DNA from: an uncultured Bacteroidia bacterium
GTDB taxonomy: Bacteria; Bacteroidota; Bacteroidia; JAIBAJ01
DNA: 64,000 nt
Direction: 5' to 3'
Assembly: GCA_965284645.1 (NCBI GenBank)
Contig: OZ260106.1
Coordinates: forward strand, 144,265 to 208,264
Shown here: positions 1 through 63,340 of the stretch, piece by piece
How the letters are laid out: each line of letters opens with the position of its first letter
Numbering within the stretch: the stretch's first letter is position 1
Program-made: the position numbers and the translations under genes
Notes under the pieces: generated by a model
Databases searched by the model: none
The model's input: the letters and a program-made list of their open reading frames with translations, nothing else
What the model was told of the DNA's origin: nothing

Positions 1-2420
1 GGAGCAGTAACCGTTTGAGTATTTCCAGTAAAAGATCCGCCGTCCGACCATGAATAAGAAGTATAACCAGCACCGGCATCAAGCGTAGTTCCGCCTGTAC
101 AATACGTTAGTGTGCCTGAAATAACAGGTGTAATACCAGGAAGCAAGGTTACAGTTATGGTATCGATACCTATGCAACCTCCAGCAATATCAACTCTTGC
201 AGCATAAATTCCAGCAGCTGTTGCCGTATAGGTTTGGTTTGTTTCACCAGGAATAATGCTAATACCACCATTGATGGTTGCCCATACATAGGTTAAATAA
301 CCAGCACCAGCATCCAAAACAGTAGAGCCACCAGGACAAATAGCAGTTGTACCTGTAATTGTAATTGGAACAGTATCATTTTCAATCACCGCTACCAAGG
401 TTGAACCAACACAACCATTCGCATCCGTAACGGTTACAGCATAGGTTCCGGCACCAAGCGTAGCCGTTTGAGTAGTGCTATATGGAGGAACCGGAATTGG
501 CAAGGCGTCTGTCCAGCCATACGAAGTATAACCTGGGCCTGCATCTAAAACAGTTGTTTGACCAGGACAAACCGTTAGGTTTCCGGTTACGGTAACGTTT
601 ACCACTGTTTCAGTAACTGTAATTGAACCAGTACCAGAGCAACCAGTAGCGTCAATAACGTTAACAGTATAAGTACCGCCTGGTACTGAAACCGTTTGGT
701 TGGCATCTGTAAAGCCATTTGGACCTGTCCAAGCATAAGTTGTATAACCTGCACCAGCATCTAAAGCTGCGGTTGCACCTTGACAGATTGTGGTTGGACC
801 AGTAATATTCACTGTAACACTACCACTCACTACAGTAGCTGTTGTTGTGCCTTGACAACCGCTTGCATCAGTAACTGTTAAGGTGTAGGTACCAGCCACT
901 GTAACAGATACTGTTTGTGTATTGCCAGAGAAACCATTTGGTCCAGACCAAGCATAGGTTGTAAAACCTACTCCCCCATCTAATGTGGTAGAACTGCCAT
1001 TACAAACGTTTAAATTTCCTGTAATTGTAGGGGTTGGGGCAGCATTAGTTGTAACAGTTGCAGAGGCTGTTCCTGTGCATCCGCTGCTATTTGTTACTGC
1101 AACTGTGTATAAACCTGCATTGGATACAGTAACAGATTGAGTTGTTGCGGTAAATCCAGATGGTCCAGTCCAAGCATAGGATGAAAAACCAGCACCAGCT
1201 GAAAGCGTAGTGGTAGCACCAGAACAAATGGTAGTGGTACCTGTTACAGTAGTAGAAGCAGAAACAGGGGCAGTATAAGTTACTTGAGCATTACAAGCCG
1301 AAGATCCTGAGAATACCGCGTTCACAGTATGCGATGCACCATCTGCAGTTATGCCAGTAATCGTATAGTTATAAGGAGAGGTAAATGGGGCGTTTATAAC
1401 CGTTTGATTAACGCCATCTGAGAAAGTTAGTGTACCAGTTGAAGGAGGATCTGTAAAGGTAAGCGTACCCGTCACATTGTAGGTATTAGTTCCAGCAGTA
1501 CAAGATGCGGCGGAACCAGTAAATGCTGAAATGTTACACAAAGCATTACAAGTTGTGCTACCTGTGCTGCTTGGGTTTTGGCTAAAGGTAATATTTGTTG
1601 CCCCTCCATTGAAGTTAGTAATTAAAATTAGGTAATACTCGCCAGCTTGAGCATTTGGAATGGTTAAAGAAAAAGTTGAACTAATCGCATAATCACAAGC
1701 AATTGGAGCGAGGCCAGAAAGGCTGGCACATCCAGTGGAAGGATCCGAAAATGGCCCCCAAATAGCACCATCAACATCAATTCCACTTGAATTACTTTGG
1801 TCAATGGTAATACTGCCACTTGTACCAACTTGGAAATAATACCAAGCTGGATTAGGCCTAGTAGACAAACATCCATAGTTCGGCCCTGTTTCTGCAGTTC
1901 CACCTGATGTTCCTGCAGGAAAGGTAATAGCACTGCTTAAACAAGCTCCGCCCGCTCCAGCACAAGTAGTTGATGGCCCAGGAGGCACCACAATGGTTCC
2001 GCAACCAATGGTAGCAGAAAAACCAGCATTTTGCACCGACCCATCAGACGTAAATCTAAAAGTCAAACAACCAGAAGTAGATGTAACAGTCCCAGGTGAT
2101 GTTGTTCCAGTATATTGGCCAACCAAAGTTGAACCAGTTGTTGGACCATCGTATATATAAAGAAAATCGTAAGTATTCTCCAAATTAAATGCATTGAAAA
2201 TTGCATATAATGGAGTGGCACTTCCATCTCCGCAAATTGTAGTTGTGAAATCTTGATTGCTTCCATAGGCAGAACCTGACCCTCCACTATCAAAAAAGTT
2301 TGCAGAACAAGTATTGACAGTCCCTCCCTGACTAATTAAAACAGTTTGCTGAGCCCTAATAGGGTTGTATAAGAAAAATAATCCTGCTAAAACTAAGATG
2401 GCAGTATAAAATTTATTCAT
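1..2420 (-). CDS. Large secreted adhesin-like surface protein, N-terminal part only (gene runs off the left edge)
   Basis: Absent from the ORF track because no stop lies in the window. My translation from the ATG at 2420 gives MNKFYTAILVLAGLFFLYNPIRAQQTVLISQGGTVNTCSANFFDSGGSGSAYGSNQDFTTTICGDG... This is a signal peptide followed by a CUB-like Cys-framed motif (YDFLYIYDG...FRFTSDGSVQNAGF). Many Ig-like units of the type ICxGxxxxLxAGxGxxxYxWxGPxGF...YTVxVTDxxGC follow. The frame is still open at base 3 (..TGNTQTVTA). Confidence 0.8.
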   Translation of the reverse strand, partial: MNKFYTAILVLAGLFFLYNPIRAQQTVLISQGGTVNTCSANFFDSGGSGSAYGSNQDFTTTICGDGSATPLYAIFNAFNLENTYDFLYIYDGPTTGSTLVGQYTGTTSPGTVTSTSGCLTFRFTSDGSVQNAGFSATIGCGTIVVPPGPSTTCAGAGGACLSSAITFPAGTSGGTAETGPNYGCLSTRPNPAWYYFQVGTSGSITIDQSNSSGIDVDGAIWGPFSDPSTGCASLSGLAPIACDYAISSTFSLTIPNAQAGEYYLILITNFNGGATNITFSQNPSSTGSTTCNALCNISAFTGSAASCTAGTNTYNVTGTLTFTDPPSTGTLTFSDGVNQTVINAPFTSPYNYTITGITADGASHTVNAVFSGSSACNAQVTYTAPVSASTTVTGTTTICSGATTTLSAGAGFSSYAWTGPSGFTATTQSVTVSNAGLYTVAVTNSSGCTGTASATVTTNAAPTPTITGNLNVCNGSSTTLDGGVGFTTYAWSGPNGFSGNTQTVSVTVAGTYTLTVTDASGCQGTTTATVVSGSVTVNITGPTTICQGATAALDAGAGYTTYAWTGPNGFTDANQTVSVPGGTYTVNVIDATGCSGTGSITVTETVVNVTVTGNLTVCPGQTTVLDAGPGYTSYGWTDALPIPVPPYSTTQTATLGAGTYAVTVTDANGCVGSTLVAVIENDTVPITITGTTAICPGGSTVLDAGAGYLTYVWATINGGISIIPGETNQTYTATAAGIYAARVDIAGGCIGIDTITVTLLPGITPVISGTLTYCTGGTTLDAGAGYTSYSWSDGGSFTGNTQTVTA

Positions 2421-2440
2421 TTTTTTAGGTATGGGGATAA

Positions 2441-2803
2441 TTAATTCAATTCTACTATAGTTGGCCTTTGAGTTTCCGTATCGTATTTCATAATAAGATT
2501 TGGCAAACCAGGTGTCCATAATTTATTAGTTGGAGATGGCTTGCGCTGATACCTTTCTCTCAATTCATTAGCCGAATAAAGCTCAATAATAGTTCCATCA
2601 TACACTTCAATCTTCCGTCTTTGATCCAACAATCGGAAGCGCTCTAAATCAACCACTTGCATCATTTTTAAGGTATGATCCTTACTTTCTGAACTTGCTT
2701 CTTTAATAAACTCGAAATGAGTCTTTGGACTAGCATTTTGGGCTAAAACTGATTTCATCCCAACAATAACTAATAAGAATAGAACCGATACTAATTTTTT
2801 CAT
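2441..2803 (-). CDS. Small secreted hypothetical protein
   Basis: 120-aa ORF with a clear signal peptide, MKKLVSVLFLLVIVGMKSVLAQ. No recognisable domain. Confidence 0.6.
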   Translation of the reverse strand: MKKLVSVLFLLVIVGMKSVLAQNASPKTHFEFIKEASSESKDHTLKMMQVVDLERFRLLDQRRKIEVYDGTIIELYSANELRERYQRKPSPTNKLWTPGLPNLIMKYDTETQRPTIVELN

Positions 2804-10990: not shown

Positions 10991-11050
10991 AAAAATCCAA
11001 GCCAGACCTAGATCTATTGGGGTGGGTCGCGTCGGCTTGGATTTTTTTTT
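10991..11050 (+). terminator. Putative rho-independent terminator after murD
   Basis: aaaaatccaagcc...ggcttggat stem followed by a T9 run. The loop is long, so the structure is imperfect. Confidence 0.5.
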
Positions 11051-11059
11051 GGCCTTCAT

Positions 11060-11230
11060 TTTAGTTTTAGGGATTTTATTTTGATTTGGCGGGCCCCTTT
11101 TCGCCCAAAACCATTTACACCTTGATTTTACCATTCTGCTAGGCGAAAAGGTCACGCTATCGCCCATACTCCTCGGAAGGCTCCGTGCCTCCGCCTTCCT
11201 CCGGGGTATTTGGCTCTATCGTTGCCCGGA
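11060..11230 (+). repeat. Family-1 intergenic repeat, copy 1 (diverged)
   Basis: Box A is tttggcgggccccttttcgcccaaaacc (11086-11112). Core B is ggtcacgctatcgcc..ctcctcgg..ctccgtgcctccgc..ctctatcgttgcccgg (11150-11229). Confidence 0.7.
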
Positions 11231-11452
11231 GTGACGCTCATTAAATAAGCCTTGGTATAAGAATTAACCATTCTTCAAAAGACAATGCACGGTCAGTATC
11301 CCAGAAATGATTAATTTTTAGATACTCTTTCAAACGTGTCATTCTGTAAACCTAACCGGTGCTTGTACCGAAACAACTTGGGCATTTTTAGGCAAAGCAA
11401 AGCCAAGCAACCCTTTTGGAAGGGAGCTAATTGACCCAAAAAATAATTTAGC

Positions 11453-12533: not shown

Positions 12534-12708
12534 GAATATTTGAGGTTCGCTCGAAGTTAAGAGATGTTATATGGTTTATCGCTTTTGCCTTCCGAATGCG
12601 TAATCTGGGTTGAAAATAAAAGGCTTGGGTTTGCTTCTTGCATTAAACATAGGAGAAAGGGGGAAGAATAGCGAAAGCCAAATTCTAGCACAAAGCTGGA
12701 ACGGAGGT

Positions 12709-12880
12709 CCGGGCAAGGATAGAGGCAGTCTAGCCCACAGGGATGCGTAGGCACGGAGCAGACCGAGGACTAGCGCCGAAAGCCTGGCCCCAGCCACCCC
12801 ATGCCAAAAGGTTTTATATCGATGCAACTGTATTGGGTGGCTGGGGGCCCGCCAAATCCCTTTCTTAAAAAACTAAGATT
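12709..12880 (-). repeat. Family-1 intergenic repeat, copy 2 (reverse orientation, subfamily beta)
   Basis: ccgggcaaggatagaggcagtctagcccacagggatgcgtaggcacggagcagaccgaggactagcgccgaaagcctggcccc, plus box A reverse complement gtattgggtggctgggggcccgccaaa (12830-12856). Confidence 0.8.
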
Positions 12881-19283: not shown

Positions 19284-19300
19284 TCACAGCATACAATCTC

Positions 19301-19342
19301 AAAATAGCCCTGGATCGTTTTGGTCTGGGGCTATTTTTTTTG
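19301..19342 (+). terminator. Putative rho-independent terminator
   Basis: aaaatagccc...gggctat stem followed by a T8 run. Confidence 0.5.
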
Positions 19343-19356
19343 ACAATAATTATAGA

Positions 19357-19539
19357 ACAGATTCTAATTTTTAATTTATCATTTTTAATTTCTTCATGCG
19401 TGCCCCCGTCCGCCAAAACCGGCATCACCTTGAAATGAACCAGTTACCAAGGGCGTCCGGGTCAGGCTATCCACTGCAAGTCCTCGGTCTGCTCCGTGCC
19501 TACGCATCCCTGTGGGCTTTTCGTTGCTATCCTTGCCCG
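19357..19539 (+). repeat. Family-1 intergenic repeat, copy 3 (forward, subfamily alpha)
   Basis: AT-rich leader ttctaatttttaatttatcatttttaatttcttc. Box A is catgcgtgcccccgtccgccaaaacc. Core B is ccgggtcaggctatccactgcaagtcctcggtctgctccgtgcctacgcatccctgtgggcttttcgttgctatccttgcccg. Confidence 0.85.
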
Positions 19540-19708
19540 ATGCCCGCCGTATATAGCTTGGGTAGAAGTATGAGGCCGCAAACCTCGCCTTAACTTTTTC
19601 GCCAAACGTTTGAAAAAAGGGGTGTTATACCGATTATAAATCTGTAATAGTCCAATTATGCTTCGCCATAATTTGCCAAAACAGCTTTTATATCGGCATT
19701 TACCAATT
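19536..19708 (+). repeat. Family-2 mosaic repeat, copy a (modules X+Y)
   Basis: cccgatgcccgccgtatatagcttgggtagaagtatgaggccgcaaacctcgccttaactttttcgcc...ggggtgttatacc (module X) recurs at 28564. gattataaatctgtaatagtccaattatgcttcgcc...cagcttttatatcgg (module Y) recurs at 63219. Confidence 0.85.
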
Positions 19709-20293
19709 AGCAAATTGCACAAAAATCCAGGAATGAATCACAAAAAGTAGCGGTCGGAGACCAATTTCTTAACTGCCCCAGTTGCAAGGGAGGGCTAGAA
19801 CGGGGAAGACAGGGAAGACTTAGACATTGAGGAAGATGGTTCCAATGATGATGAAATACTGGAACAATTAACCCTCAAATAAAAATTTTAAAGAACGAGT
19901 ATGAAAATAAACTTCGTAACAGAAAGAGAAGAGAATTTTTATGATTTCACGACCATAAACGGCATACTGGGAGTGAATAAATCTTAACTTTACCTAGAGT
20001 TACACAATCTACCTGAGATGGACATTGTGAAGTATAAAAGCCAATGCATCTGCAAATAGAAAACCCTCTTTTTATTGATGGACCGAATACTCTTTGAGAG
20101 ATTGGATAAAATTAAAATGAAGAAGTATGAACTTTCAGAAATTAAGAACGATAACCGATAGGGTTTCTAAATAATCGACAAAACTTATGAATGAGAAAAA
20201 CCAAAAGAAGAAAGAGATTTTAAGGGGCAAAATACAGATTGATGAAGTATGGGTTAAACAAGAAAGATTGAAGAAATAAGTAGTTCTAAAAGT

Positions 20294-20330
20294 AAAAATC
20301 CCCACAATTATAGGTTGTGGGGATTTTTGT
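20294..20330 (-). terminator. Bidirectional rho-independent terminator downstream of the giant adhesin gene
   Basis: aaaaatccccacaa-ttatagg-ttgtggggattttt: a 9-bp GC-containing stem flanked by an A-run and a T-run, about 20 nt after the stop at 20349. Confidence 0.65.
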
Positions 20331-20348
20331 TAGAAGATATTTTAGAGA

Positions 20349-23300
20349 CTAATTCTTAATAAACATAGCTCTGCTTTGTATACCAGCTAAAGTTAGTGTT
20401 ATGCAATATGCGCCTGATGCTATAGTTGAGGTGTTTAAATCAAACTGTTTGCCCGACTTATTAACCTCAGCCATTATTAGTTTTCCATACATATCATAAA
20501 CCTCTATAGCTATATTATTAGCAGGCTTGTTAAGGCTAATGGTTATATTTTCGATAGCGGGGTTTGGGTACAGAAAAAAGTTATCTCGAACGCCTTGTTC
20601 AATTATGGCTGTTACGTTTTGGTTTACTATAGTTGAAATTGTATCAGAACAACCCGCATTGCTAACTATAGCTATTAGTTCGCAACTGGCTGTATCATCC
20701 CAAATAACATTAATAGAATTAGTTCCTTGTCCCGTAGTTATAGTGCCACAATTTGTAATCCATTGGTAGGCATCGGCATTAAAATCTAATGTAACAAAAT
20801 AGGCATAAGGTTGAAGTGTATCTACCACTGTTGGTCCGTATATTGAATCTAACGGTGTTAGTGCAGGTACAACGTTTATAGACGTACTGGCATTGGTTGT
20901 GCAGCCTTGTAAATTAGACACAGCAACATTGTAGTTAGTAGTTTGTGTAGGTGACACAGTTATTGAGCTATTGGTAGAGCCTGTGCTCCATAAATAGCTA
21001 TCACCACCAGTAGCAGTTAATACTACTGAGCTGCCACTACAAACTGTAGCAGAAGGGGTAATGGTTGCTACAGGAGTTGGATTTACTGTTACTGTAATGT
21101 TGGTAATAGCAGTGCAGCCGTTTCCATTGTTTGATGTTACCGTATATGTTGTGGTTTGGGTTGGCGATACAGTTATACTTGCTGAAGTTGCACCATTGCT
21201 CCAGCTGTAATTATTTCCACCACTAACAGTTAGCGTGGTGCTATTACCTGAACACAATGTATTAGTACCTGAAATACTTAAAACAGGCCCTGGTAAAACA
21301 GTTACTGTTACTGAGCTGTCAGAAGAACAACCACTGCCATTATCTACTGTTACATTATAGGTAGTAGTTTGGTTAGGCGATACAGTTATGGCATTTGCAG
21401 TGGCCCCTGTATTCCATGTGTAGGATACGCCTCCTGTGGCTGTTAACGTTGTAGTACTACCTTGACAAATAGAAGTAACACCAGCAATGTTTATTGAGGG
21501 TGAATTTGATACAGTTACCGTTTGACTAGCTGATGCAGAGCAGCCATTGCCATTAAAAACAGTTACCGTGTATGTAGTAGTTTGGTTAGGGGCTACGGTA
21601 ATAGAGCTTGATGTTGAACCGTTGCTCCATACATAGCTGTTGCCTCCACTAGCCGTTAGGGTTGTGTTAGCACCTAAACAAATGCTATTTACACCAGTAA
21701 TACTTGGGCTTGGCGATGGGCTAACTGTTACGGTTTGGCTAGTAGATGCACTACAACCATTTCCATTGGTTACTGTCACTGTGTAAGTGGTTGTTTGGTT
21801 TGGCGATACAGTTATAGAAGCTGTTGTAGCTCCAGTACTCCATACATAGCTTGTATCTCCGCTGGCAGTTAAGGTGGTGCTGGCACCTGAACAGATGCTA
21901 TTTGTACCAGAAATACTTGGGGTTGGGGCTGGATTAACTGTTACCGTTTGGTTGGTTGAAGCGGTACAACCGTTGCTGCCTGTGGCTGTTACGCTATAGG
22001 TGGTTGTTTGGGATGGAGAAACAGATATTGAAGCTGTTGTAGCCCCAGTACTCCATACATAGCTATTACCACCACTGGCGGTTAATGTTGTGCTGGCACC
22101 TGAACAGATGCTATTTGTACCAGAAATACTTGGGGTTGGTGCTGGATTTACCGTTACTGCTTGGCTAACAGAAGCTGTACAACCGTTGCCATTTGTTGCT
22201 GTTACGGTATAAGTAGTGGTTTGGGTGGGCGATACGGTTATAGAAGCTGTTGTAGCTCCAGTACTCCATACATAGCTTGTACCTCCACTGGCAGTTAATG
22301 TGGTGCTATTGCCTGCACAAATAGTGTTAACGCCAGAAATGCTAGGTGTCGGCAGTGGATTTACTGTTACTGTTCGGGTAGTGTTGCCTGTACAACCATT
22401 GATACCTGTTGCTGTTACGGTATAGGTAGTGGTTTGAGTGGGCGATACGGTTATAGAAGCTGTTGTAGCTCCAGTACTCCATACATAGCTTGTACCTCCG
22501 CTGGCAGTTAATGTGGTGCTGTTTCCTGAACAAATAGTATTAGTGCCTGTTATGCTTGGTGTGGGTGCTGGATTAACTGTTACTGTTATGGTAGCATTAG
22601 CCGTACAACCGTTGCTGCCTGTGGCTGTTACGCTATAGGTGGTTGTTTGAGTAGGGGATACCGTTATAGAAGCGGTAGTAGCCCCAGTACTCCATACATA
22701 GCTGTTGCCACCACTGGCGGTTAACGTGGTGCTGTCACCTGAACATATACTGTTAGTACCTGAAATACTTGGTGTTGGTGATGGGTTTACTGTTACTACC
22801 TGACTAACAGAAGCTGAACATCCATTGCTATTGGTAGCGGTTACGGTATAGGTAGTAGTTTGGGTAGGCGATACAGTAATAGAGCTTGATGTAGAACCAT
22901 TGCTCCATGCATAGCTGCTTCCGCCGCTGGCAGTTAAAGTAGTGCTATTGCCTGCGCAAATAGTGTTAACGCCCGAAATGCTAGGTGTTGGCAGTGGATT
23001 AACCGTTACTGTTCTAGTAGTGTTGCCTGTACAACCATTGATACCTGTTGCTGTTACGGTATAGGTAGTGGTTTGAGTGGGCGATACGGTTATAGAAGCT
23101 GTTGTAGCTCCAGTACTCCATACATAGCTTGTACCTCCGCTGGCAGTTAATGTGGTGCTGTTTCCTGAACAAATAGTATTAGTGCCTGTTATGCTTGGTG
23201 TGGGTGCTGGATTAACTGTTACTGTTATGGTAGCATTAGCCGTACAACCGTTGCTGCCTGTGGCTGTTACGCTATAGGTGGTTGTTTGAGTAGGGGATAC

Positions 23301-26300
23301 CGTTATAGAAGCGGTAGTAGCCCCAGTACTCCATACATAGCTGTTGCCACCACTGGCGGTTAGTGTTGTACTGGCACCTGAACAGATACTGTTAGTGCCT
23401 GAAATACTTGGTGTTGGTGCTGGGTTTACTGTTACTGCCTGACTAACAGAAGCTGAACAACCATTGCTATTGGTAGCAGTTACGGTATAGGTAGTAGTTT
23501 GGGTAGGCGATACAGTAATAGAGCTAGATGTAGAGCCATTGCTCCATACATAGCTGGTACCACCACTGGCAGTTAAGGTGGTGCTGGCACCTGCACAAAT
23601 AGCGTTAACACCCGAAATGCTAGGTGTTGGCAGTGGATTTACTGTTACTGTTCGGGTAGTGTTGCCTGTACAACCATTGCCATTTGTTGCTGTTACGGTA
23701 TAAGTAGTGGTTTGGGTGGGTGAAACGGTTATAGAAGCTGTTGTAGCTCCAGTACTCCATACATAGCTTGTACTTCCGCTGGCAGTTAAGGTGGTGCTGG
23801 CACCTGAACAGATGCTATTTGTACCAGAAATACTTGGGGTTGGGGCTGGATTAACTGTTACCGTTTGGTTGGTTGAAGCGGTACAACCGTTGCTACCTGT
23901 TGCTGTTACGGTATAGGTAGTTGTTTGGGTGGGCGATACGGTTATAGAAGCTGTAGTAGCTCCAGTACTCCATACATAGCTATTACCACCACTGGCGGTT
24001 AATGTTGTGCTGGCACCTGAACAGATGCTATTAGTACCCGAAATACTTGGAGTAGGTAGTGGGTTTACCGTAACGGTTACGTTATCAGTGCAGCTAACTC
24101 CATTTTCAGTAACTGTGAGTGTATAAGTAGTAGTTTGTGTGGGACTAACATTAATAGTAGGTGTAGTAGCCCCATTACTCCATAAATATTGGGTGTTTGA
24201 TAAAGTATAAAGTTGTAGTACTTCTGAGGATGTTAATGCTCTATTATACAATGTAACATCATCTAATTTACCTGCAAAGTTTGCTGCATTGTTTTGATTG
24301 TTGTCGCCCAAAGTAAAGCCTGTTACAAAGTTGTCTGGACCTCCCATTGTAGTTGCTCTGCGTTGCGAACCTGTGTACCAGTTTCCGTCTGATAAAATCG
24401 TTGTTAATTGAACTCCATTGATGTATACTTTAACATCAGTACCATCGTAGCTTACTAGTAAATAATTCCAAGTTCCTGGGGAGATAAATCCATTTGTTTT
24501 ATAATCAATAGCAACGTCCCCAATACTTCCCATAGTATTAGCATTATATCGACCAAAAGCTATATCTGTTGTTGTATCGTTGGGTTGCCCTATTCTAGCG
24601 TAAACTCTTTTAAATGGGCTTACGTTATTACCATCAAATGAAAAAAAGACATTAGATGAGAGACCAAAGCCACCTCCATTATTTCCAGAAGCATCCCGAT
24701 TAAACCATAGCCCAACAGAAAAAGGGTTATTACCATCAATTAATTGGCGAAGGGCATTGTTATTATTGGCTATACGGGCACTCCCGTTAAAGTAATATGA
24801 AGTATTTGCTGCACCAGTTCTGTCAGTAGATAAAGTGGCAGAAGTTACCGTTCCATTATTCCCATTACCACTGGCATCATTAGCATTGCCGCAAAAGGGG
24901 TAGTAAGCCACTAAGCCCGTTTGTAAATTACTTGGCAAATTGGTTGAGGCACAAGCTTGTATTCCGCTGCTGCTGCTTGTATCGGCACTTAAGGTAATAC
25001 TTTGCCCTGCACAAATGGTGGTATCGTTTTGTTGTATTTGGGCGGTGCATGCGCCATTATATAAATCTGTTATTTCTTGTTGGGTTAAGGCGCGATTCCA
25101 AAAGCCAACATCATCAATTTTACCAATAAATTGTTGGTTTAAAACACTTGATCCAATAAAAAAATTTATACCTGTTCCGGTATTTAAAATGGTGCTTAGA
25201 TTAAAAGAACTGAACACGGTACTTAATAGAACTCCATCGAGATATACCTTTATTGCAGAAATAGTATTTCCAAAAGAGGGGTCATAAACCAAAACAAGAT
25301 TTCGCCATGAACCAAGTGTGTTAGATGAATAAAATACTTGACTATTACTTATGTCCATTCCGGCTTTGTCAGCCCCTATTAATGGTATAAAGGTACGGCC
25401 AGGTGAATTTTGCCCATATCCACCTAAAACCCAATCAGCTGACGGTCCATTACTTTGACTCTGTAAAAACCATAGAGATATAGACCGAGCACTCGTACCG
25501 GTAGGTCCAACTAGAGGTGTTTGAATATTTTGTGGAGTACTTCCATTATTAGCAAAACTGTAAGCACTATTAGCGTTCCCAAACCTGTCAGCAGTCAGCG
25601 TTGCACCGTTTACTGTACCGTTGTTGCCGTTGCCGCTCTCATCGCTAGCGTTACCACAAAATGGCCAGTACCCCACTAAACCACTAGTTGGAACATACGA
25701 TGGTAAACAGGTGCTTGAAGGTAATGAAGAATTATACAAGTTTGTTACCTCTTGCTGTGTTAAAGCTCTATTCCAAATGCCGATATCATCAGCCTTTCCT
25801 TTAAACCATCTATACCAGTCTACAGGTGCTGTATTTGTAAACTCTTTCCCTATATATAAAGGTTCAGATGAATTTATTAATGTTAAAGTTGTATTTGTTG
25901 TTTGTTCCAAAACACCATTTCTGTATAATGAAATATTAGTAGGTGTTTTTACTGCAATAATATTAATCCATGTGTTTAACGGAAGGGGAGCGTTTGAAAC
26001 TACAAAGGTTTGAGATGTTCCATTATGATTTACATGAGAACAATTGTTACTAAGATCCTGGTATACACTATTAATTGAATACCCTGTTTGCCAACCGGCC
26101 CCTCTTGGCTTGCCTAATATAGTTCTTACAGCGTCTGTATTTCCACTTCCATTAGGAAATTGAGGAGTTGAATAGTCAGGAATTTGCACCCAAACAGAGA
26201 TTGTGTAAGTTGTTGTAAAATCAAGTGAATTATTATCAGGAATACTAATAAAATCATTTACACCATCAAAGCTATATGCTGCATTAGTGTTACCAAACCT

Positions 26301-26408
26301 ATCGGTAGTTAGGGTTGCACCGTTCACGGTTCCGTTATTGCCGTTGCCACTTAAATCATTGGCATTACCTGTAAAAGGCCACCAGCCAACAAGGCCATTG
26401 GTAGGCAC
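20349..26408 (-). CDS. Giant T9SS-secreted adhesin-like protein: 3 LamG (Laminin_G_3-like) modules, 15 Ig-like repeats and a Por/T9SS C-terminal sorting domain
   Basis: The module GLVGWWPFxGNANDxSGNGNNGTVNGATLTxDRFGN...WNRALTQQE occurs three times. There are 15 units of 71 aa (SISGTNSICSGASTTLTASGGNSYVWSTGATTASITVSPTQTTTYTVTA..GC....TVTVNPxPTP). The C-terminus FFLYPNPAIENITISL...IEVYDMYGKLI...GAYCITLTL is T9SS type-A CTD-like. The track start is a GTG with no signal peptide. A proper signal peptide (ATG at 26479) lies one frame away across a T9 tract (see findings). Confidence 0.9.
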   Translation of the reverse strand: MPTNGLVGWWPFTGNANDLSGNGNNGTVNGATLTTDRFGNTNAAYSFDGVNDFISIPDNNSLDFTTTYTISVWVQIPDYSTPQFPNGSGNTDAVRTILGKPRGAGWQTGYSINSVYQDLSNNCSHVNHNGTSQTFVVSNAPLPLNTWINIIAVKTPTNISLYRNGVLEQTTNTTLTLINSSEPLYIGKEFTNTAPVDWYRWFKGKADDIGIWNRALTQQEVTNLYNSSLPSSTCLPSYVPTSGLVGYWPFCGNASDESGNGNNGTVNGATLTADRFGNANSAYSFANNGSTPQNIQTPLVGPTGTSARSISLWFLQSQSNGPSADWVLGGYGQNSPGRTFIPLIGADKAGMDISNSQVFYSSNTLGSWRNLVLVYDPSFGNTISAIKVYLDGVLLSTVFSSFNLSTILNTGTGINFFIGSSVLNQQFIGKIDDVGFWNRALTQQEITDLYNGACTAQIQQNDTTICAGQSITLSADTSSSSGIQACASTNLPSNLQTGLVAYYPFCGNANDASGNGNNGTVTSATLSTDRTGAANTSYYFNGSARIANNNNALRQLIDGNNPFSVGLWFNRDASGNNGGGFGLSSNVFFSFDGNNVSPFKRVYARIGQPNDTTTDIAFGRYNANTMGSIGDVAIDYKTNGFISPGTWNYLLVSYDGTDVKVYINGVQLTTILSDGNWYTGSQRRATTMGGPDNFVTGFTLGDNNQNNAANFAGKLDDVTLYNRALTSSEVLQLYTLSNTQYLWSNGATTPTINVSPTQTTTYTLTVTENGVSCTDNVTVTVNPLPTPSISGTNSICSGASTTLTASGGNSYVWSTGATTASITVSPTQTTTYTVTATGSNGCTASTNQTVTVNPAPTPSISGTNSICSGASTTLTASGSTSYVWSTGATTASITVSPTQTTTYTVTATNGNGCTGNTTRTVTVNPLPTPSISGVNAICAGASTTLTASGGTSYVWSNGSTSSSITVSPTQTTTYTVTATNSNGCSASVSQAVTVNPAPTPSISGTNSICSGASTTLTASGGNSYVWSTGATTASITVSPTQTTTYSVTATGSNGCTANATITVTVNPAPTPSITGTNTICSGNSTTLTASGGTSYVWSTGATTASITVSPTQTTTYTVTATGINGCTGNTTRTVTVNPLPTPSISGVNTICAGNSTTLTASGGSSYAWSNGSTSSSITVSPTQTTTYTVTATNSNGCSASVSQVVTVNPSPTPSISGTNSICSGDSTTLTASGGNSYVWSTGATTASITVSPTQTTTYSVTATGSNGCTANATITVTVNPAPTPSITGTNTICSGNSTTLTASGGTSYVWSTGATTASITVSPTQTTTYTVTATGINGCTGNTTRTVTVNPLPTPSISGVNTICAGNSTTLTASGGTSYVWSTGATTASITVSPTQTTTYTVTATNGNGCTASVSQAVTVNPAPTPSISGTNSICSGASTTLTASGGNSYVWSTGATTASISVSPSQTTTYSVTATGSNGCTASTNQTVTVNPAPTPSISGTNSICSGASTTLTASGDTSYVWSTGATTASITVSPNQTTTYTVTVTNGNGCSASTSQTVTVSPSPSPSITGVNSICLGANTTLTASGGNSYVWSNGSTSSSITVAPNQTTTYTVTVFNGNGCSASASQTVTVSNSPSINIAGVTSICQGSTTTLTATGGVSYTWNTGATANAITVSPNQTTTYNVTVDNGSGCSSDSSVTVTVLPGPVLSISGTNTLCSGNSTTLTVSGGNNYSWSNGATSASITVSPTQTTTYTVTSNNGNGCTAITNITVTVNPTPVATITPSATVCSGSSVVLTATGGDSYLWSTGSTNSSITVSPTQTTNYNVAVSNLQGCTTNASTSINVVPALTPLDSIYGPTVVDTLQPYAYFVTLDFNADAYQWITNCGTITTGQGTNSINVIWDDTASCELIAIVSNAGCSDTISTIVNQNVTAIIEQGVRDNFFLYPNPAIENITISLNKPANNIAIEVYDMYGKLIMAEVNKSGKQFDLNTSTIASGAYCITLTLAGIQSRAMFIKN
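20853..24190 (-). repeat. Coding tandem array: 15 full units plus 1 partial unit of 213 bp, with a 639-bp higher-order duplication
   Basis: Unit period is 213 bp (71 aa). By eye, 22381-22723 is identical to 23020-23362 (offset 639 = 3 units). Confidence 0.9.
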
Positions 26409-26446
26409 ATAATTGGGTATTTGGGCATAGGTTAGTATAGAAACTG

Positions 26447-26455
26447 AAAAAAAAA
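26447..26455 (-). other. Homopolymer tract (A9 on plus strand, T9 in the coding sense) inside the adhesin signal-peptide region
   Basis: ATG AAA AAA GTT CTT ATT TCT TTC T9 CAG.. stops after 15 codons. Adding one T gives MKKVLISFFFFSVSILTYAQ/IPNYVPTNGLVGWW, in frame with the 2019-aa ORF. Confidence 0.85.
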
Positions 26456-26540
26456 GAAAGAAATAAGAACTTTTTTCATAAGGAAAAATATTTTTTGCAA
26501 ATAACCAAGTTATAAACCGTTACTTAATAATCCAAAAAAT

Positions 26541-26579
26541 CCAAATAGTTCAAAAAAGCCAGATAGTTCAAATGGTTCA
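26541..26579. promoter_or_regulatory. Direct repeats in the divergent adhesin / HTH-kinase promoter region
   Basis: ccaaATAGTTCAaa (26541-54), ccagATAGTTCAaa (26559-72) and ATGGTTCA (26572-79). Spacing is 18 and 9 bp. Confidence 0.3.
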
Positions 26580-26656
26580 CTTATTATATATTTACCTTAA
26601 AATGTTATGAAAACAAATTTTTAAATTACATTTTTGCAGTTTATATTCTTTCGCAA

Positions 26657-27217
26657 ATGTTAAGACCGGATATTAAACAGCTTGTAGAAAATAAATTTGG
26701 CAAAGAAATTAACTATCCTAAAGATTGTGCTGTATTGGCTGAGGTAATGAGGATAGATAATAATTTACCCATAAGCTCTAGTACACTAAAGAGAGTTTTT
26801 GGCTTTTACGGCGAAATCGAAAAACCCCGCCTACACACATTAGATATGTTGGCAAAATATTTAGGGTATAAAAACTGGGCAGAGTTAGATAATCATTTAC
26901 TTCATAACGATAGTGGATTTGATGAAATTGAGACCATAGAAATAGATAAATTAGAACTAAACAATAAACTGGTAATTGAATATTCCTCAATAAGAAAGAT
27001 ACGAATGCAGTATTTGGGGGAGTTTAGGTTTGAACTATTAGAGTCTACCAGCAGTAAACTTCGCAAAGGAGATATACTGCGCATTCATAACCTCGTTAAA
27101 GGCTATCCCTTAATTTGCCAAAGTGTAATTAGGGATAACACTGATTTAGGAAAATATATAGGCGGCAAAACATCAGGCATTACTTATCTTTGTGTTTTAG
27201 ACACTAAGAAACTGTAA
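26657..27217 (+). CDS. Hypothetical protein with an N-terminal HTH-like region and a C-terminal beta-rich domain
   Basis: 186 aa. ISSSTLKRVFGFYGEIEKPRLHTLDMLAKYLGYKNWAEL looks like an HTH segment. The stop is 1 nt before the kinase ATG. AT-rich. Confidence 0.6.
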   Translation: MLRPDIKQLVENKFGKEINYPKDCAVLAEVMRIDNNLPISSSTLKRVFGFYGEIEKPRLHTLDMLAKYLGYKNWAELDNHLLHNDSGFDEIETIEIDKLELNNKLVIEYSSIRKIRMQYLGEFRFELLESTSSKLRKGDILRIHNLVKGYPLICQSVIRDNTDLGKYIGGKTSGITYLCVLDTKKL

Positions 27218-27218
27218 T

Positions 27219-28397
27219 ATGTTATATCATGAATCATCGTTTATTATTAATGATGATGGAGGTGCAGATGACCAGATATTATTAAGTTCTGGCGGAACAT
27301 GCAATATTTACAGGCTGCGAATTGATAAGAAATTTTATATTCGGAAAGAACTAAAACCTAAGCATAGCCAAGACCCTGTTTACTTAATTGCCTTTGATAG
27401 GGAGTTTGAAATTGGCCAAGAGCTAAACCACCCTAATATTGTTAAGTATTTATATAAGCACCAAGGCTATATAATACAAGAGTATTTGGACGGAGAGACA
27501 TTAGCTGTTTTAGCTGAAAATATTGCATTCTATTCCATTAAGCAGCGGTATCTGCAAATTGAAAAGTACTTATACCAGCTATGCACAGCTGTTGAATACC
27601 TTCACAGTAAAGGTATAACCCACGGCGATATAAAGCCCCAAAACATTATTGTTACTCATGTCTCTAATGAGTTAAAACTCATTGATTTTGGACATGCCTA
27701 TACACTACAATACGAAGGTATAAAAGGAGGTACGCCGGGCTACTTAATGCAAGATAATGATTTAGGTTCTTTTGAAGAACGTAAAATTGCCGATTTGTAC
27801 GCAATCCAAAAAATAGTTAACGAGCTATTGACTATTGGTTTGCAATCCCATGAAACCAATGCTAAAGTAACGGCATACATTAAAAACACGGGAAAAAAAT
27901 TACCCAAAACGGCTCAAAACATTTATAGTAGCTATCTAGAACTAAAACGTAGAAAATCAATTTTATACATGCTGCCAATTCTCTTGTTTGTTATTATTGG
28001 CATACTGGTTTATTGGTTTGTAAGCCCACAAAAACAGGCAGCGGACATAAAGGCACCTGTTATTATGACAAAACTAAAAGTGCCTAATAAAACAAAAGCA
28101 CCAAATTTAGAAATTGAACATAATAGCGATGCTTATATGTGGGGTGGTAAGTTTTATAAACCACTAAATGATTCTATTAACAAAGTGAAATATAGCCTGA
28201 CAAACACTGAATTTTTCAGTATCAGAGCGTTTTTTATATTGAAGAATGACAATCAATGGCAAACTGTCTTAAATAAAGTCCCGATGGTTAGGCAAAAAGC
28301 CCTTCAAACCGATTATAACAAGGGATATGTAAATGCATATAAAAAATCAGAAGATATTTATATATTGCATAATAAAAAATACCCAATAGAAAAATGA
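27219..28397 (+). CDS. Membrane-anchored Hanks-type Ser/Thr protein kinase-like protein (non-RD)
   Basis: G-loop-like SSGGTCNIY, Lys in YIRKELK, catalytic loop THGDIKPQNIIV (HGD instead of HRD), LIDFGHA, GTPGY, a single TM ILYMLPILLFVIIGILVYWFV, and a C-terminal domain of about 115 aa of unknown type. Confidence 0.8.
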   Translation: MLYHESSFIINDDGGADDQILLSSGGTCNIYRLRIDKKFYIRKELKPKHSQDPVYLIAFDREFEIGQELNHPNIVKYLYKHQGYIIQEYLDGETLAVLAENIAFYSIKQRYLQIEKYLYQLCTAVEYLHSKGITHGDIKPQNIIVTHVSNELKLIDFGHAYTLQYEGIKGGTPGYLMQDNDLGSFEERKIADLYAIQKIVNELLTIGLQSHETNAKVTAYIKNTGKKLPKTAQNIYSSYLELKRRKSILYMLPILLFVIIGILVYWFVSPQKQAADIKAPVIMTKLKVPNKTKAPNLEIEHNSDAYMWGGKFYKPLNDSINKVKYSLTNTEFFSIRAFFILKNDNQWQTVLNKVPMVRQKALQTDYNKGYVNAYKKSEDIYILHNKKYPIEK

Positions 28398-28563
28398 ATT
28401 TCCCAAAGTTATATAATGGCAAGGTTGTGGGAAGAACCTCAACAGGTTAATCATTAAAAAATGTGTGCGGTATGTTCAGATTTAAATAGCTCTCAAACCC
28501 ATACTAAAATTATGACCCAAAAACGAAAAAGTTGAAGTATAAAAGGGAAATGTTCTTTCAACG

Positions 28564-28705
28564 CCCGATGCCCGCCGTATATAGCTTGGGTAGAAGTACG
28601 AGGCCGCAAACCTCGCCTTAACTTTTTCGCCAAGCGTTTGTAAAAAGGGGTGTTATACCAATCTAAATTTGTATATTGCCTTTAGACCATTTACAAATTA
28701 AATAA
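28564..28705 (+). repeat. Family-2 mosaic repeat, copy b (modules X+Z)
   Basis: Module X is nearly identical to 19536-19633 (about 97 nt with roughly 3 mismatches). Module Z (ctaaatttgtatattgcctttagaccatttacaaattaaa) matches 63291-63340. Confidence 0.85.
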
Positions 28706-29440: not shown

Positions 29441-29643
29441 CATAGGTTTCCAAATATTGAAACTTTTTTGGTCGTTTAATTTACAAAACAACCTTTTAAC
29501 TCAAATTCCGCATTAGAAATGCAAGTACAAAGGCAACTAAGTAAAGTAGTTCAGATTTAAAAACCCTCCTATTGATCAATTTGAGATTAAAAAACATAGC
29601 AAACAACCAGACATGAAATACCACACTTCAATACTTCAGCTAC

Positions 29644-29848
29644 AACCGGGCACGAAGAACCCCGGGCAACGATAGAAGCGTAAAGCCCACAGGGATGCGG
29701 AGGCACGGAGCAGACCGAGGACTTGCAGCGGATAGCGTGACCCGGACGCTGCTGGCACAAAACTAAGCTTTACAGGTAGAACTTAAGGCAGCGGAAGGGG
29801 GCCCGCATGAAGAAATTAAAAATGATAAATTAAGAATTAAAAATTGAA
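29644..29848 (-). repeat. Family-1 intergenic repeat, copy 4 (reverse, subfamily alpha)
   Basis: aaccgggcacgaagaaccccgggcaacgatagaagcgtaaagcccacagggatgcggaggcacggagcagaccgaggacttgcagcggatagcgtgacccgg, then gcggaagggggcccgcatgaagaaattaaaaatgataaattaagaattaaaaa. The ends match the reverse complement of copy 3. Confidence 0.85.
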
Positions 29849-40475: not shown

Positions 40476-40765
40476 ATGAAAAATCTACTTTTCGCCCTTT
40501 TATCTCTTGTTACGGTTGTCCTTTTTCTTGCAAACCTTGTTACGACTGCGAGCGCAAATGCGGTACCTGCACCAAAGGTTTTTTGGTGGTAGCCGGTTGC
40601 GATGGAGATTCTACGCTAGATGGATTTTCAGTGGATAGTTGGAAAGCCTATTTTGAAAGCCAAGGATATACCTGCGTTTACAACAATCCTCCGTCGGTTG
40701 AAGTTTGCGGAAACGACGATAAAAACACCTATTCCGATAAAGGCTACACCTGCACTTCCAAATAA
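40476..40765 (+). CDS. Small cysteine-rich lipoprotein, reading frame interrupted at a T5 tract (frameshift, sequencing error or pseudogene)
   Basis: The ATG at 40476 encodes MKNLLFALLSLVTVVLF.., which stops at 40592. Shifting -1 at ttttt (40522-26) gives ..VVLFSCKPCYDCERKCGTCTKG... through to the stop at 40765. That reconstructs a lipobox (LFSC) and a 78-aa mature peptide with 10 Cys. Confidence 0.5.
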
Positions 40766-40788: not shown

Positions 40789-40970
40789 CCTAATTTCTAA
40801 TTCTCTAATTCCTAATTTCTAATTCTTTTGGCGTGTCCCATTCGCCCAATACCCTTTTCCCGTTGAAATTAGATTTGTGCAAGGCGAATGGTCGGGCTAT
40901 CCACTGCAAGTCCTCGGTCTGCTCCGTGCCTCCGCATCCCTGTGGGCTTTTCGTTTCTATCCCTACCCGG
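40789..40970 (+). repeat. Family-1 intergenic repeat, copy 5 (forward, subfamily alpha)
   Basis: Leader cctaatttctaattctctaattcctaatttctaattc. Box A is ttttggcgtgtcccattcgcccaataccc. Core B is ggtcgggctatccactgcaagtcctcggtctgctccgtgcctccgcatccctgtgggcttttcgtttctatccctacccgg. Confidence 0.85.
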
Positions 40971-47926: not shown

Positions 47927-47965
47927 AAAAAGGCCGATTCTTTGCAGAGTTGGCCTTTTTTTTTG
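47927..47965 (+). terminator. Putative rho-independent terminator
   Basis: aaaaaggcc...ggcct stem followed by a T9 run. Confidence 0.5.
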
Positions 47966-48024
47966 AAACATAGGCTACTGCGTTATGGGAATTGCGTTTC
48001 AGACCAAAAGTAAAGTGGTTTGGT

Positions 48025-48172
48025 CCGGGCAAGGATAGAGGCAGTCTAGCCCACAGGGATGCGGAGGCACGGAGCAGACCGAGGACTAGCGCCGAAAGCC
48101 TGACCCGAACGCCCCAGTACACTGTAAAATTTAAAGTACAAAGGGTTTTGGGCGGAAGGGGGCCCGCCAAAT
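48025..48172 (-). repeat. Family-1 intergenic repeat, copy 6 (reverse, subfamily beta)
   Basis: ccgggcaaggatagaggcagtctagcccacagggatgcggaggcacggagcagaccgaggactagcgccgaaagcctgacccg, then ggttttgggcggaagggggcccgccaaa. Confidence 0.85.
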
Positions 48173-50656: not shown

Positions 50657-50691
50657 TGCCCTATGCCTTTTTCGCATGGGGCATTTTTTTT
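50657..50691 (+). terminator. Rho-independent terminator
   Basis: tgccctatgc-ctttttc-gcatggggca stem-loop followed by a T8 run. Confidence 0.65.
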
Positions 50692-50703
50692 AAAACAGTT
50701 TTC

Positions 50704-52892: not shown

Positions 52893-53774
52893 ATGAAAGC
52901 TTCTATCCCATTCTTGGCCCTATTTACCCTGATGGCTAGCGCAAATCTCCTTCAGGGGCAAAGCCTCGTATCTAGATCGAGATGGACCGCCCAGTCTATT
53001 CAAATCGATGGCAAAACCACGGAATGGGAGAAACCATTGGGGGCCTACGATTATAAAACCAGGGTTATGTTTGCCTTGCAAAACGATAGCAGTAATTTAT
53101 ACCTCTGCATCATTGTTCCGGACGAGACCAACCAGGTAAAGATTAGCAGGGGTGGACTTCAAGTGAGTTTTGGCGGAAAATCAAAAAAAGACAAAATCAA
53201 AAAGAATATCATTTATCCTCTCGGAAGCGGTGGTCCAATGAACCAAGGCGAAAGTCCTACCTTTATCGATGGAAAGCCCAATATGAAATTGTTCCAAACC
53301 GTATTTCAACTAAACAATACCATGAAACGGATTGAAGGGTTTACAGGAAGAAATGGCTTGGTAGGCTTAAAAGATTCCACCGGAATTCAGGTGGCCATTG
53401 GATGGGATAGCCTGAATACCATGGAATACGAACTGGCGGTTCCATTAAAAGAACTTTTTGAATCAGGTTCCATGCCTGAAAACTGGGCCAAAGAGCTGCA
53501 AATGGAAGTGACTGTTTTTGGATTAAGTAAAACAGGCATCAAGGATAAAGATATGGAGGAGTTCATGAATACCCCCAACCCAATGAGCGGCAACCGCAAC
53601 CAAAGTGTAGCCGACATGAATAACCAAAGCATGACCAATCCAATGGGACAAACCGGTAATGGAATGCCTATCAATATGGCACCTACAACCGGAAACTTTA
53701 GCCGATCTTCTGAAAAAGGCCCCTTGTACGAAAAGGCTAGCTTTAAATGGAAGTTTGTTCTTTCCGGAAAATAG
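52893..53774 (+). CDS. Secreted hypothetical protein with a Met/Asn/Pro-rich C-terminal region
   Basis: Signal peptide [23 protein letters not shown], 293 aa, 5-nt gap after the peptidase gene. Confidence 0.6.
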
Positions 53775-58367: not shown

Positions 58368-58530
58368 GTTTGGCGGGTCCCCTTGCGCCCAAAACCAGGT
58401 GGCCATTACATAGGCATAGGTGCCCGGCGCAAGGGTCGCGCTTTCGCTAGTACTCCTCGGTCTGCTCCGTTCCTCCGCAGCCCTGTGGGGTACCACGCTC
58501 TATCGCTACCCGGGGTTCTTCGTGCCCGGT
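58368..58530 (+). repeat. Family-1 intergenic repeat, copy 7 (forward, diverged)
   Basis: gtttggcgggtccccttgcgcccaaaacc, then ggtcgcgctttcgctagtactcctcggtctgctccgttcctccgcagccctgtggggtaccacgctctatcgctacccggggttcttcgtgcccggtt. Confidence 0.8.
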
Positions 58531-58936
58531 TTTTGGTGAAGTACAGGCAGTGGTTTTTAAATTTAAATTCATTTCATTTTGAAATTCAAAAAAATTAAAA
58601 CACCCATTTCCTTCAGCTTTAGTTATTAGAAAATAAAAATTGGATATGGTTTTTTTTCTAATCTATACAAAGGTCTTCCGTATTAAAATTTTGGCATTTT
58701 TCAATTTCTTTTGGAAAGTTAAAATATTTCATTTGTGATAAAGAATGGCATGCCAAAAAGCTAACTTTTCCAATTTTTAAAAAAACTTACAATTACCAAA
58801 AATTCCACAACACATTATTTGCCAATATTTTAGACATAAAAATACTTACCTTAAAATACCTATTTTTAAAAATATTTGAGAAATTAAAATTTTTCATTTT
58901 TGGACAATTCCAATTTAAAAAAATCAAATAGTAACT

Positions 58937-63197: not shown

Positions 63198-63218
63198 TTG
63201 AACTATTTGATTTATTTC

Positions 63219-63340
63219 CGATTATAAATCTGTAATAGTCCAATTATGCTTCGCAATTATTTGCCTAAACAGCTTTTATATCGGAATTTACCGATCTAAA
63301 TTTATAACCTGCCATTGGACCATTTATAAATTAAAATTGG
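63219..63340 (+). repeat. Family-2 mosaic repeat, copy c (modules Y+Z)
   Basis: ccgattataaatctgtaatagtccaattatgcttcgc..cagcttttatatcgg matches 19631-19708. ctaaatttataacctgccattggaccatttataaattaaa matches 28655-28705. Confidence 0.85.

Follow-up and report, generated by a model that had tools for sequence, protein, structure and literature searches.

The gene under study lies on the minus strand of the window, the term used here for the whole stretch of 64,000 nucleotides that was analysed. It contains an ORF of 2019 aa (20349..26408), the first in-frame start of which is a GTG at 26408. This frame remains open over 26519-20349, and a different in-frame start was rejected for the long ORF because ATG, GTG and TTG are all absent between 26519 and 26408. 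An earlier note on this DNA had stated that the ORF has no in-frame ATG, which is correct for its 5′ end but not beyond it.

The product is a giant adhesin in which Pfam recognises three Laminin_G_3 matches, many Ig_7/PKD repeats and a C-terminal Por_Secre_tail. The three LamG (Laminin_G_3) modules form the N-terminal part (24170..26419, minus strand, matched in three stretches with E 7e-36; boundaries approximate), and in translation each starts with the motif P.YVPTNGLVG[WY][WY]PF. A tandem array of approximately 15 Ig-like (Ig_7/PKD) units of 213 nt is located at 20871..24178 of the same strand. The array contains, at 22378-23362, a 346-nt exact direct repeat. Its lag of 639 equals the length of three Ig units of 213 nt, and identity over 600 nt amounts to 96.5%, which suggests that three units were duplicated very recently. 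The number of Ig repeats varies, since the orthologue on contig L251 is shorter by about 230 aa. The sorting domain that characterises type IX secretion system (T9SS) cargo (Por_Secre_tail, PF18962; type A CTD) is found at the extreme C-terminus of the protein (20388..20573, minus strand). It corresponds to residues 1970-2031 of the 2043 aa of the repaired protein, with an E of 3.9e-11 and 43.5 bits against a cut-off of 27.

Downstream of the adhesin 3′ end, approximately 1 kb (19284-20348) between it and an AIM24-family gene is without a convincing ORF and consists partly of intergenic repeats. These repeats belong to a family whose copies measure ~75-180 nt, are 75-98% identical, occur in both orientations and share the core GGCTATCCACTGCAAGTCCTCGGTCTGCTCCGTGCC..CGCATCCCTGTGGGCTTTTCG. 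Copies are present at 11084-11232, 12706-12790, 19365-19704, 28563-28673, 29632-29839, 40890-40969, 48022-48172, 58433-58543 and 63218-63292. The family has no Rfam match, and may be a MITE/REP-like element or a small RNA; Rfam and tRNA scans of the whole window were likewise empty. Upstream of the adhesin is a divergent gene for a 186-aa protein (26657-27217), and no Bacteroidetes TAnnTTTG promoter motif was found in the 178-nt intergenic region between the two. A second large secreted protein is encoded at 3-2522 (minus strand, running past the left edge of the window). This protein has a CUB-like domain, and its signal (MNKFYTAILVLAGLFFLYNPIRAQQ) is intact, with no long homopolymer in the signal peptide.

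The signal peptide of the adhesin is encoded in a different frame from its body. On the minus strand (reverse complement of 26300-26660), an ATG at 26479-26477, preceded by the bases ...cctt, opens the reading ATG AAA AAA GTT CTT ATT TCT TTC TTTTTTTTT CAG TTT CTA TAC TAA, with the stop codon at 26434-26432. This stranded ORF of 15 codons (26432..26479) is translated as MKKVLISFFFFQFLY and then stops; it represents the n- and h-regions of the Sec signal peptide of the adhesin. The GTG at 26408 lies 71 nt downstream of this ATG. The long frame reads ...YEKSSYFFLFFSVSILTYAQIPNYVPTNGLVGWW..., or in another excerpt ...FFSVSILTYAQIPNYVPTNGLVGWW.... The T9 homopolymer responsible for the break (26447..26455 on the minus strand; A9 on the plus strand) is situated within the hydrophobic core of the signal peptide. 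The run, whether T9 or T10, occupies codons 9-12 and is the longest coding run in the window.

A tract of either T10 or T7 joins the two frames to yield MKKVLISFFFFSVSILTYAQIPNY..., giving a repaired protein of 2043 aa. T7 was rejected as the intact state because a conspecific genome has T10. The product initiated at the GTG has no hydrophobic core: its best 11-residue Kyte-Doolittle mean is 0.38, and that of the repaired N-terminus 2.35. Beyond the break, the 6-kb ORF is free of further lesions and collinear with an intact ortholog. The N-terminal Sec signal expected of T9SS cargo is therefore out of frame as sequenced, and precedes the body only with T10. The gene truly starts at the ATG of 26479 with its signal peptide, and is made whole by one additional T. 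The account of this junction in the earlier note (an ATG 71 nt upstream in another frame, a T9 run, a short peptide ending in a stop, and a GTG-initiated product lacking a Sec signal) was reproduced in full on the reverse complement. The note had also proposed a signal peptide with an AQ cleavage site, of which the signal peptide stands and the site is the less likely one. Cleavage probably occurs between TYA and QIPNY (between 26424 and 26423) rather than between AQ and I, because the conserved Gln fits the Bacteroidetes Q-rule on signal-peptidase cleavage (PMC5837995).

Relatives of the first LamG module were collected from genome and metagenome collections as a set of 160 loci, with 158 N-terminal copies. 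In 154 of these 158, an in-frame Met and a hydrophobic signal run into the junction A-Q-[V/I]-P-x-Y-V-P-T-N-G-L-V-G-W-W, a layout shared by the closest database proteins. In the DNA encoding these 154 signal peptides, homopolymers reach a length of 8 at most. One family member, from a long-read (‘tig’) wastewater MAG (L050:2938-3010), has its signal peptide (MKNLFLSVMTCLCLVET, ending in a stop) out of frame with the LamG body; this break is probably a homopolymer or short-run assembly error.

Direct searches with the window proteins and the tract DNA returned no orthologue of the adhesin. Exact-match look-ups with three proteins of the window gave no hit. A scan of genome contigs with the adhesin N-terminus gave only paralogue-level relatives (<=52% identity), and the protein scan of metagenomes gave matches at <=54% identity. 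The exact DNA patterns across the adhesin tract had no match in metagenome or genome contigs, and the nearest genome in a YidC scan (75% identity) lacked synteny. The closest protein matches, P0004 (83% over LamG1) and P0002, were rejected as orthologues and regarded as paralogues because of their non-syntenic contexts. The route to conspecific and sister-lineage contigs was the cluster of the divergent 186-aa neighbour, which has a 99%-identical relative.

One of these contigs is L249, a MEGAHIT contig from a short-read metagenome (ENA ERZ27272060) of the same species. It aligns with window positions 26293-28165 at 98.6% nucleotide identity over 1874 aligned bases, and the only gap is at the T tract. 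L249 has T10, with flanks identical for 24 nt upstream and ~110 nt downstream. Its gene translates to MKKVLISFFFFSVSILTYAQIPNYVPTNGLVGWWPF..., of which the first 11 residues match the stranded ORF of the window. This is exactly the MKKVLISFFFFSVSILTYAQIPNY... fusion that had been predicted for a T10 allele from the window sequence. A second conspecific contig (JGI/NCBI 3300059473), known from its gene call only, has an 88-codon call beginning at the equivalent ATG, 178 nt from the neighbour, and on that basis must be in frame as well. The metagenomes with conspecific contigs also include JGI 3300035703. The earlier note had proposed that the tract be compared in sister strains; the sequences of the species differ in its length (T10 vs T9, which may be an artefact), and the long tract is absent from the sister lineage.

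Two contigs represent that sister lineage (~83-85% nucleotide identity), and carry an intact, collinear orthologue of 1814 aa with 68% amino acid identity over ~1650 residues. Its signal, MKKV[IL]IAFFFVTVSILTYAQ, is encoded by TTC TTT TTT GTT ACx and contains T6 only. In the species of the window, the FFFF-S core is encoded by TTC TTT TTT TTT TCA, giving T10. Relative to the sister lineage, T10 arises from two substitutions, GTT>TTT and ACA>TCA, both of which extend the run. This makes the T10 run specific to the species of the window, and the window holds the version shorter by one base.

The conspecific adhesins are not alike throughout. The window and L249 are near-identical in promoter, signal peptide and the initial ~62 codons, and homology then ends (at ~26293 in the window; L249:1-185). 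Past codon ~62 the LamG cassette of L249 is P0002-like, whereas the first LamG of the window resembles P0004 (83% identity). Such a pattern suggests that cassettes have been exchanged among paralogues, and the mosaic body is suggestive of diversifying selection between strains.

The adhesin is one of only two broken genes among the ~50 of the window, as judged from a coding-potential map and Pfam checks. Other overlapping ORF pairs (MraZ/RsmH, FolE/PTPS, and the unassigned 293-aa ORF at 52893-53774 beside an aminotransferase gene) were rejected as frameshifts, being separate intact genes. The second broken gene encodes a 96-aa lipoprotein (40476..40765, plus strand) with a VVLFSC lipobox, and is interrupted at a T5 run (40522-40526). 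Translation from the ATG at 40476 gives MKNLLFALLSLVTVVLF..., after which the frame departs from the conserved body. The run is T6 in related contigs and in the conspecific contig L252 (98.9% over 11,179 nt), and the disruption that the earlier note had mentioned at this position is real. The repaired protein is cysteine-rich (MKNLLFALLSLVTVVLF followed by SCKPCYDC...), with full-length 96-aa relatives at about 50-99% identity. A third difference is a T9 run at 47956..47964 (plus strand), which is intergenic and is T10 in the conspecific contig L254. Contig L254 is 98.97% identical to the window over 11,231 nt and differs from it by two indels only, the other being at 50692. At that site, which adjoins an A8/T8 run (50684-50691), T4 in the window corresponds to T3 in L254.

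Run lengths were compared over 24.3 kb of conspecific alignment (L249, L252 and L254; 98.6-99.0% identity). None of 133 5-mers was discordant, nor any of the seven 7-mers or two 8-mers; one of 34 6-mers and both of the two 10-mers were. The window has the shorter sequence at every discordant run in this comparison. In the window as a whole, A/T runs of at least 9 number 3, vs 16.8 +/- 5.6 in dinucleotide-preserving shuffles, an approximately five-fold depletion, as would be expected if slippery runs were selected against in this genome. The adhesin T9 is the only one of the three in coding sequence. The third is at 11042-11050, and the exact DNA pattern for it had no match in genome contigs. 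Two of the three 9-nt homopolymers adjoin copies of the intergenic repeat.

The explanation that best accommodates these observations is a homopolymer under-call, which we consider rather probable. According to this explanation, the gene would be an ordinary one for a Sec- and T9SS-exported giant surface protein, with a signal peptide, 3 LamG modules, ~15 Ig-like repeats and a T9SS CTD. The assembly would have under-called T10 by one base to T9, and the gene in the organism would be intact and normally expressed. All three discordances would share one cause, a systematic one-base under-calling that is strongest at the longest runs. The window proteins map to a single closed NCBI contig of 4,430,998 nt, which is probably a long-read assembly. 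Long reads are suggested by the single 4.43-Mb contig and by the fact that the assembly spans the 346-nt exact tandem repeat. The in-frame T10 of L249 with the tract as the sole indel, the in-frame second conspecific, the otherwise undamaged 6-kb ORF past the break, the same kind of signal/body break in the long-read MAG, and the intact 96-aa lipoprotein of relatives all argue for an under-call. The discordant 10-mer at 47956-64 is not a gene switch, because it is intergenic, and the T6 of the lipoprotein gene is too short for a contingency tract. The earlier note had allowed a homopolymer miscall as a non-negligible alternative to a phase switch, and with the other short runs and the closed contig taken into account it has become the leading explanation.

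We infer a technical rather than a biological origin for the missing base, and several observations weigh against this. Of the runs of 6-8 nt, 42 of 43 agree between the window and its conspecifics, fewer errors than a crude consensus of long reads would contain, and only 2 of the ~50 genes are broken. The two 10-vs-9 differences could be real polymorphisms between strains ~1% apart, since A/T runs of this length are hypervariable in nature. The inlA tract, for example, has a reported mutation rate elevated ~1000-fold (PMC2831843). Because mutation is far more frequent in long A/T runs than at single sites, differences in 10-mers would be expected at this distance between strains. The shared direction of the two 10-vs-9 differences could arise from contraction bias. 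The adhesin is also a strain-variable surface protein, and genes of this class often have real OFF alleles. Whatever the cause of the T9, the T10 run is an intrinsic slippage hot spot, and real ON/OFF variants must arise at some frequency.

The first alternative is that T9 is a genuine state of a hypermutable tract. Slippage would toggle the adhesin between an exported form (T10, ON) and a signal-less cytoplasmic or truncated form (T9, OFF), and the sequenced clone or consensus would be OFF. We regard this as possible but unlikely. The run is hypermutable, lies inside an ORF, and toggles the frame when its length changes, with T9 leading to a stop after 15 codons and T10 exactly restoring the signal peptide. 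Conspecific genomes differ in the tract with identical flanks, the other 6 kb of the gene is intact, and a tract at the very start of a gene for a giant surface protein is in the classic position for a switch, with precedents in inlA (A7/A6), swrA and C. coli flhA (PMC2831843). The run is the only one of at least 9 in coding sequence of a window depleted of such runs, was born in this species through the two extending substitutions, and precedes a body that is mosaic between strains. However, the long tract is not kept in orthologues or paralogues (T6 in the sister, a maximum of 8 among 154 homologue signal peptides), a poly-T of 9-10 ranks among the shortest of the known switch tracts, and both of the other conspecific samples are ON. 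In addition, 69% of Phe codons are TTT, and an FFFFS core would produce a long T run about one-third of the time without selection. A gene-specific switch also leaves the one-base shortfall at the intergenic 10-mer and at the lipoprotein T6 unexplained. The proposal in the earlier note of a phase switch caught in the OFF state is therefore retained for the frame break and the reconstruction of the intact gene, and an evolved switch has become the less likely reading.

Should T9 prove real, an extended version may be put forward, which we regard as unlikely. On that reading, the T10/T9 run would have arisen recently as a contingency switch for a giant adhesin secreted by the T9SS of a free-living freshwater Bacteroidota. 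ON/OFF switching together with LamG cassette mosaicism would vary the surface, for instance against phages or grazers, and the OFF state would be leaky through transcriptional slippage.

A genuine T9 might be a plain and recent one-way loss-of-function frameshift without any regulatory role, arising for example during laboratory passage, under phage or grazer selection, or in a mismatch-repair-deficient background, with the lipoprotein T6>T5 as a second lesion. Homopolymers are natural indel hot spots, two independent -1 homopolymer frameshifts are present in secreted-protein genes within 64 kb, and the intact downstream ORF implies that the lesion would be recent. The loss of a small lipoprotein conserved across many lineages would nevertheless be unexpected, and a mutator should also have altered other 6-8 nt runs, of which only 1 of 43 differs. 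At the sequence level a lesion of this kind looks the same as an assembly error, and we consider it improbable.

It is highly improbable that a genuine T9 is expressed by recoding, through addition of one U by RNA polymerase or a -1 ribosomal slip on U UUU UUU to give the same fusion as T10: a slippery run does lie where the two ORFs meet, in the frame relation required (one added nucleotide being equivalent to a -1 slip), and tRNA-Phe re-pairs perfectly in the -1 frame on TTT TTT TTT, yet the split arrangement is not conserved (L249, L251 and L253 are all in frame, and the sister has T6), no stimulatory RNA structure was found downstream (minimum free energy not better than shuffles, z = 0.68; the sole helix pairs A6 with the U-run), and slippage could do no more than render an OFF allele leaky, and is not a designed mode of expression. 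Runs of 9 A/T are the threshold for efficient transcriptional slippage in many bacteria and are selected against in coding regions (PMC1088944); the T9 is of this length, and such runs are depleted in the window. The closest parallel is mxiE of Shigella flexneri, described with other 9A/9T slippage genes (PMC1088944), in which a T run likewise lies between two overlapping ORFs and one non-templated nucleotide fuses them. The split is a conserved functional state in mxiE, whereas the close relatives of the adhesin are simply in frame.

Three further known systems can be compared with the locus. The indel errors of long-read (ONT/PacBio) assemblies resemble it in that single-base deletions are confined to A/T runs, the longest runs are affected (2/2 ten-mers), the source is a closed 4.43-Mb contig, and false frameshift pseudogenes appear in intact conserved genes. 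The differences are a low error density here (1/43 discordant among 6-8 nt runs), and a platform that is inferred, natural polymorphism being possible. L. monocytogenes inlA (A7/A6), B. subtilis swrA (poly(A)) and C. coli flhA (poly(T)) (PMC2831843) share with it a poly-A/T run no more than ~30 nt into a surface or motility gene, truncation after about 8-15 residues by a one-base change, and coexistence of in- and out-of-frame alleles among close strains. In contrast to these, the adhesin tract is species-specific and known from sequence alone, and belongs to a T9SS LamG/Ig cargo of an uncultured-type freshwater Bacteroidota. The LamG T9SS cargo of Flavobacteriia and other Bacteroidota (‘LamG-like jellyroll fold domain-containing protein’) has thousands of homologues with the same signal peptide...AQ[VI]P.YVPTNGLVGWWPF layout, LamG modules and Por_Secre_tail. 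The copy in the window differs in being unusually long (2043 aa, three LamG, ~15 Ig-like repeats) and in lacking an in-frame signal as sequenced.

If the T9 is an under-call, the gene should be annotated as an intact T9SS adhesin of 2043 aa starting at 26479. The deposited genome would then probably contain many similar homopolymer frameshifts recorded as false pseudogenes, the 96-aa lipoprotein included. Every reading of the locus is either an artefact or a further case of the known 5′ homopolymer frameshifts in surface-protein genes. Phase variation in Bacteroidota has been described chiefly for invertible promoters. A real T9 would belong to the well-known kind represented by the 5′ tracts of inlA, swrA and flhA, and would not be a new mechanism; it would constitute a rare documented instance of a T9SS surface protein varied ON/OFF by a homopolymer in an environmental member of the Bacteroidota.
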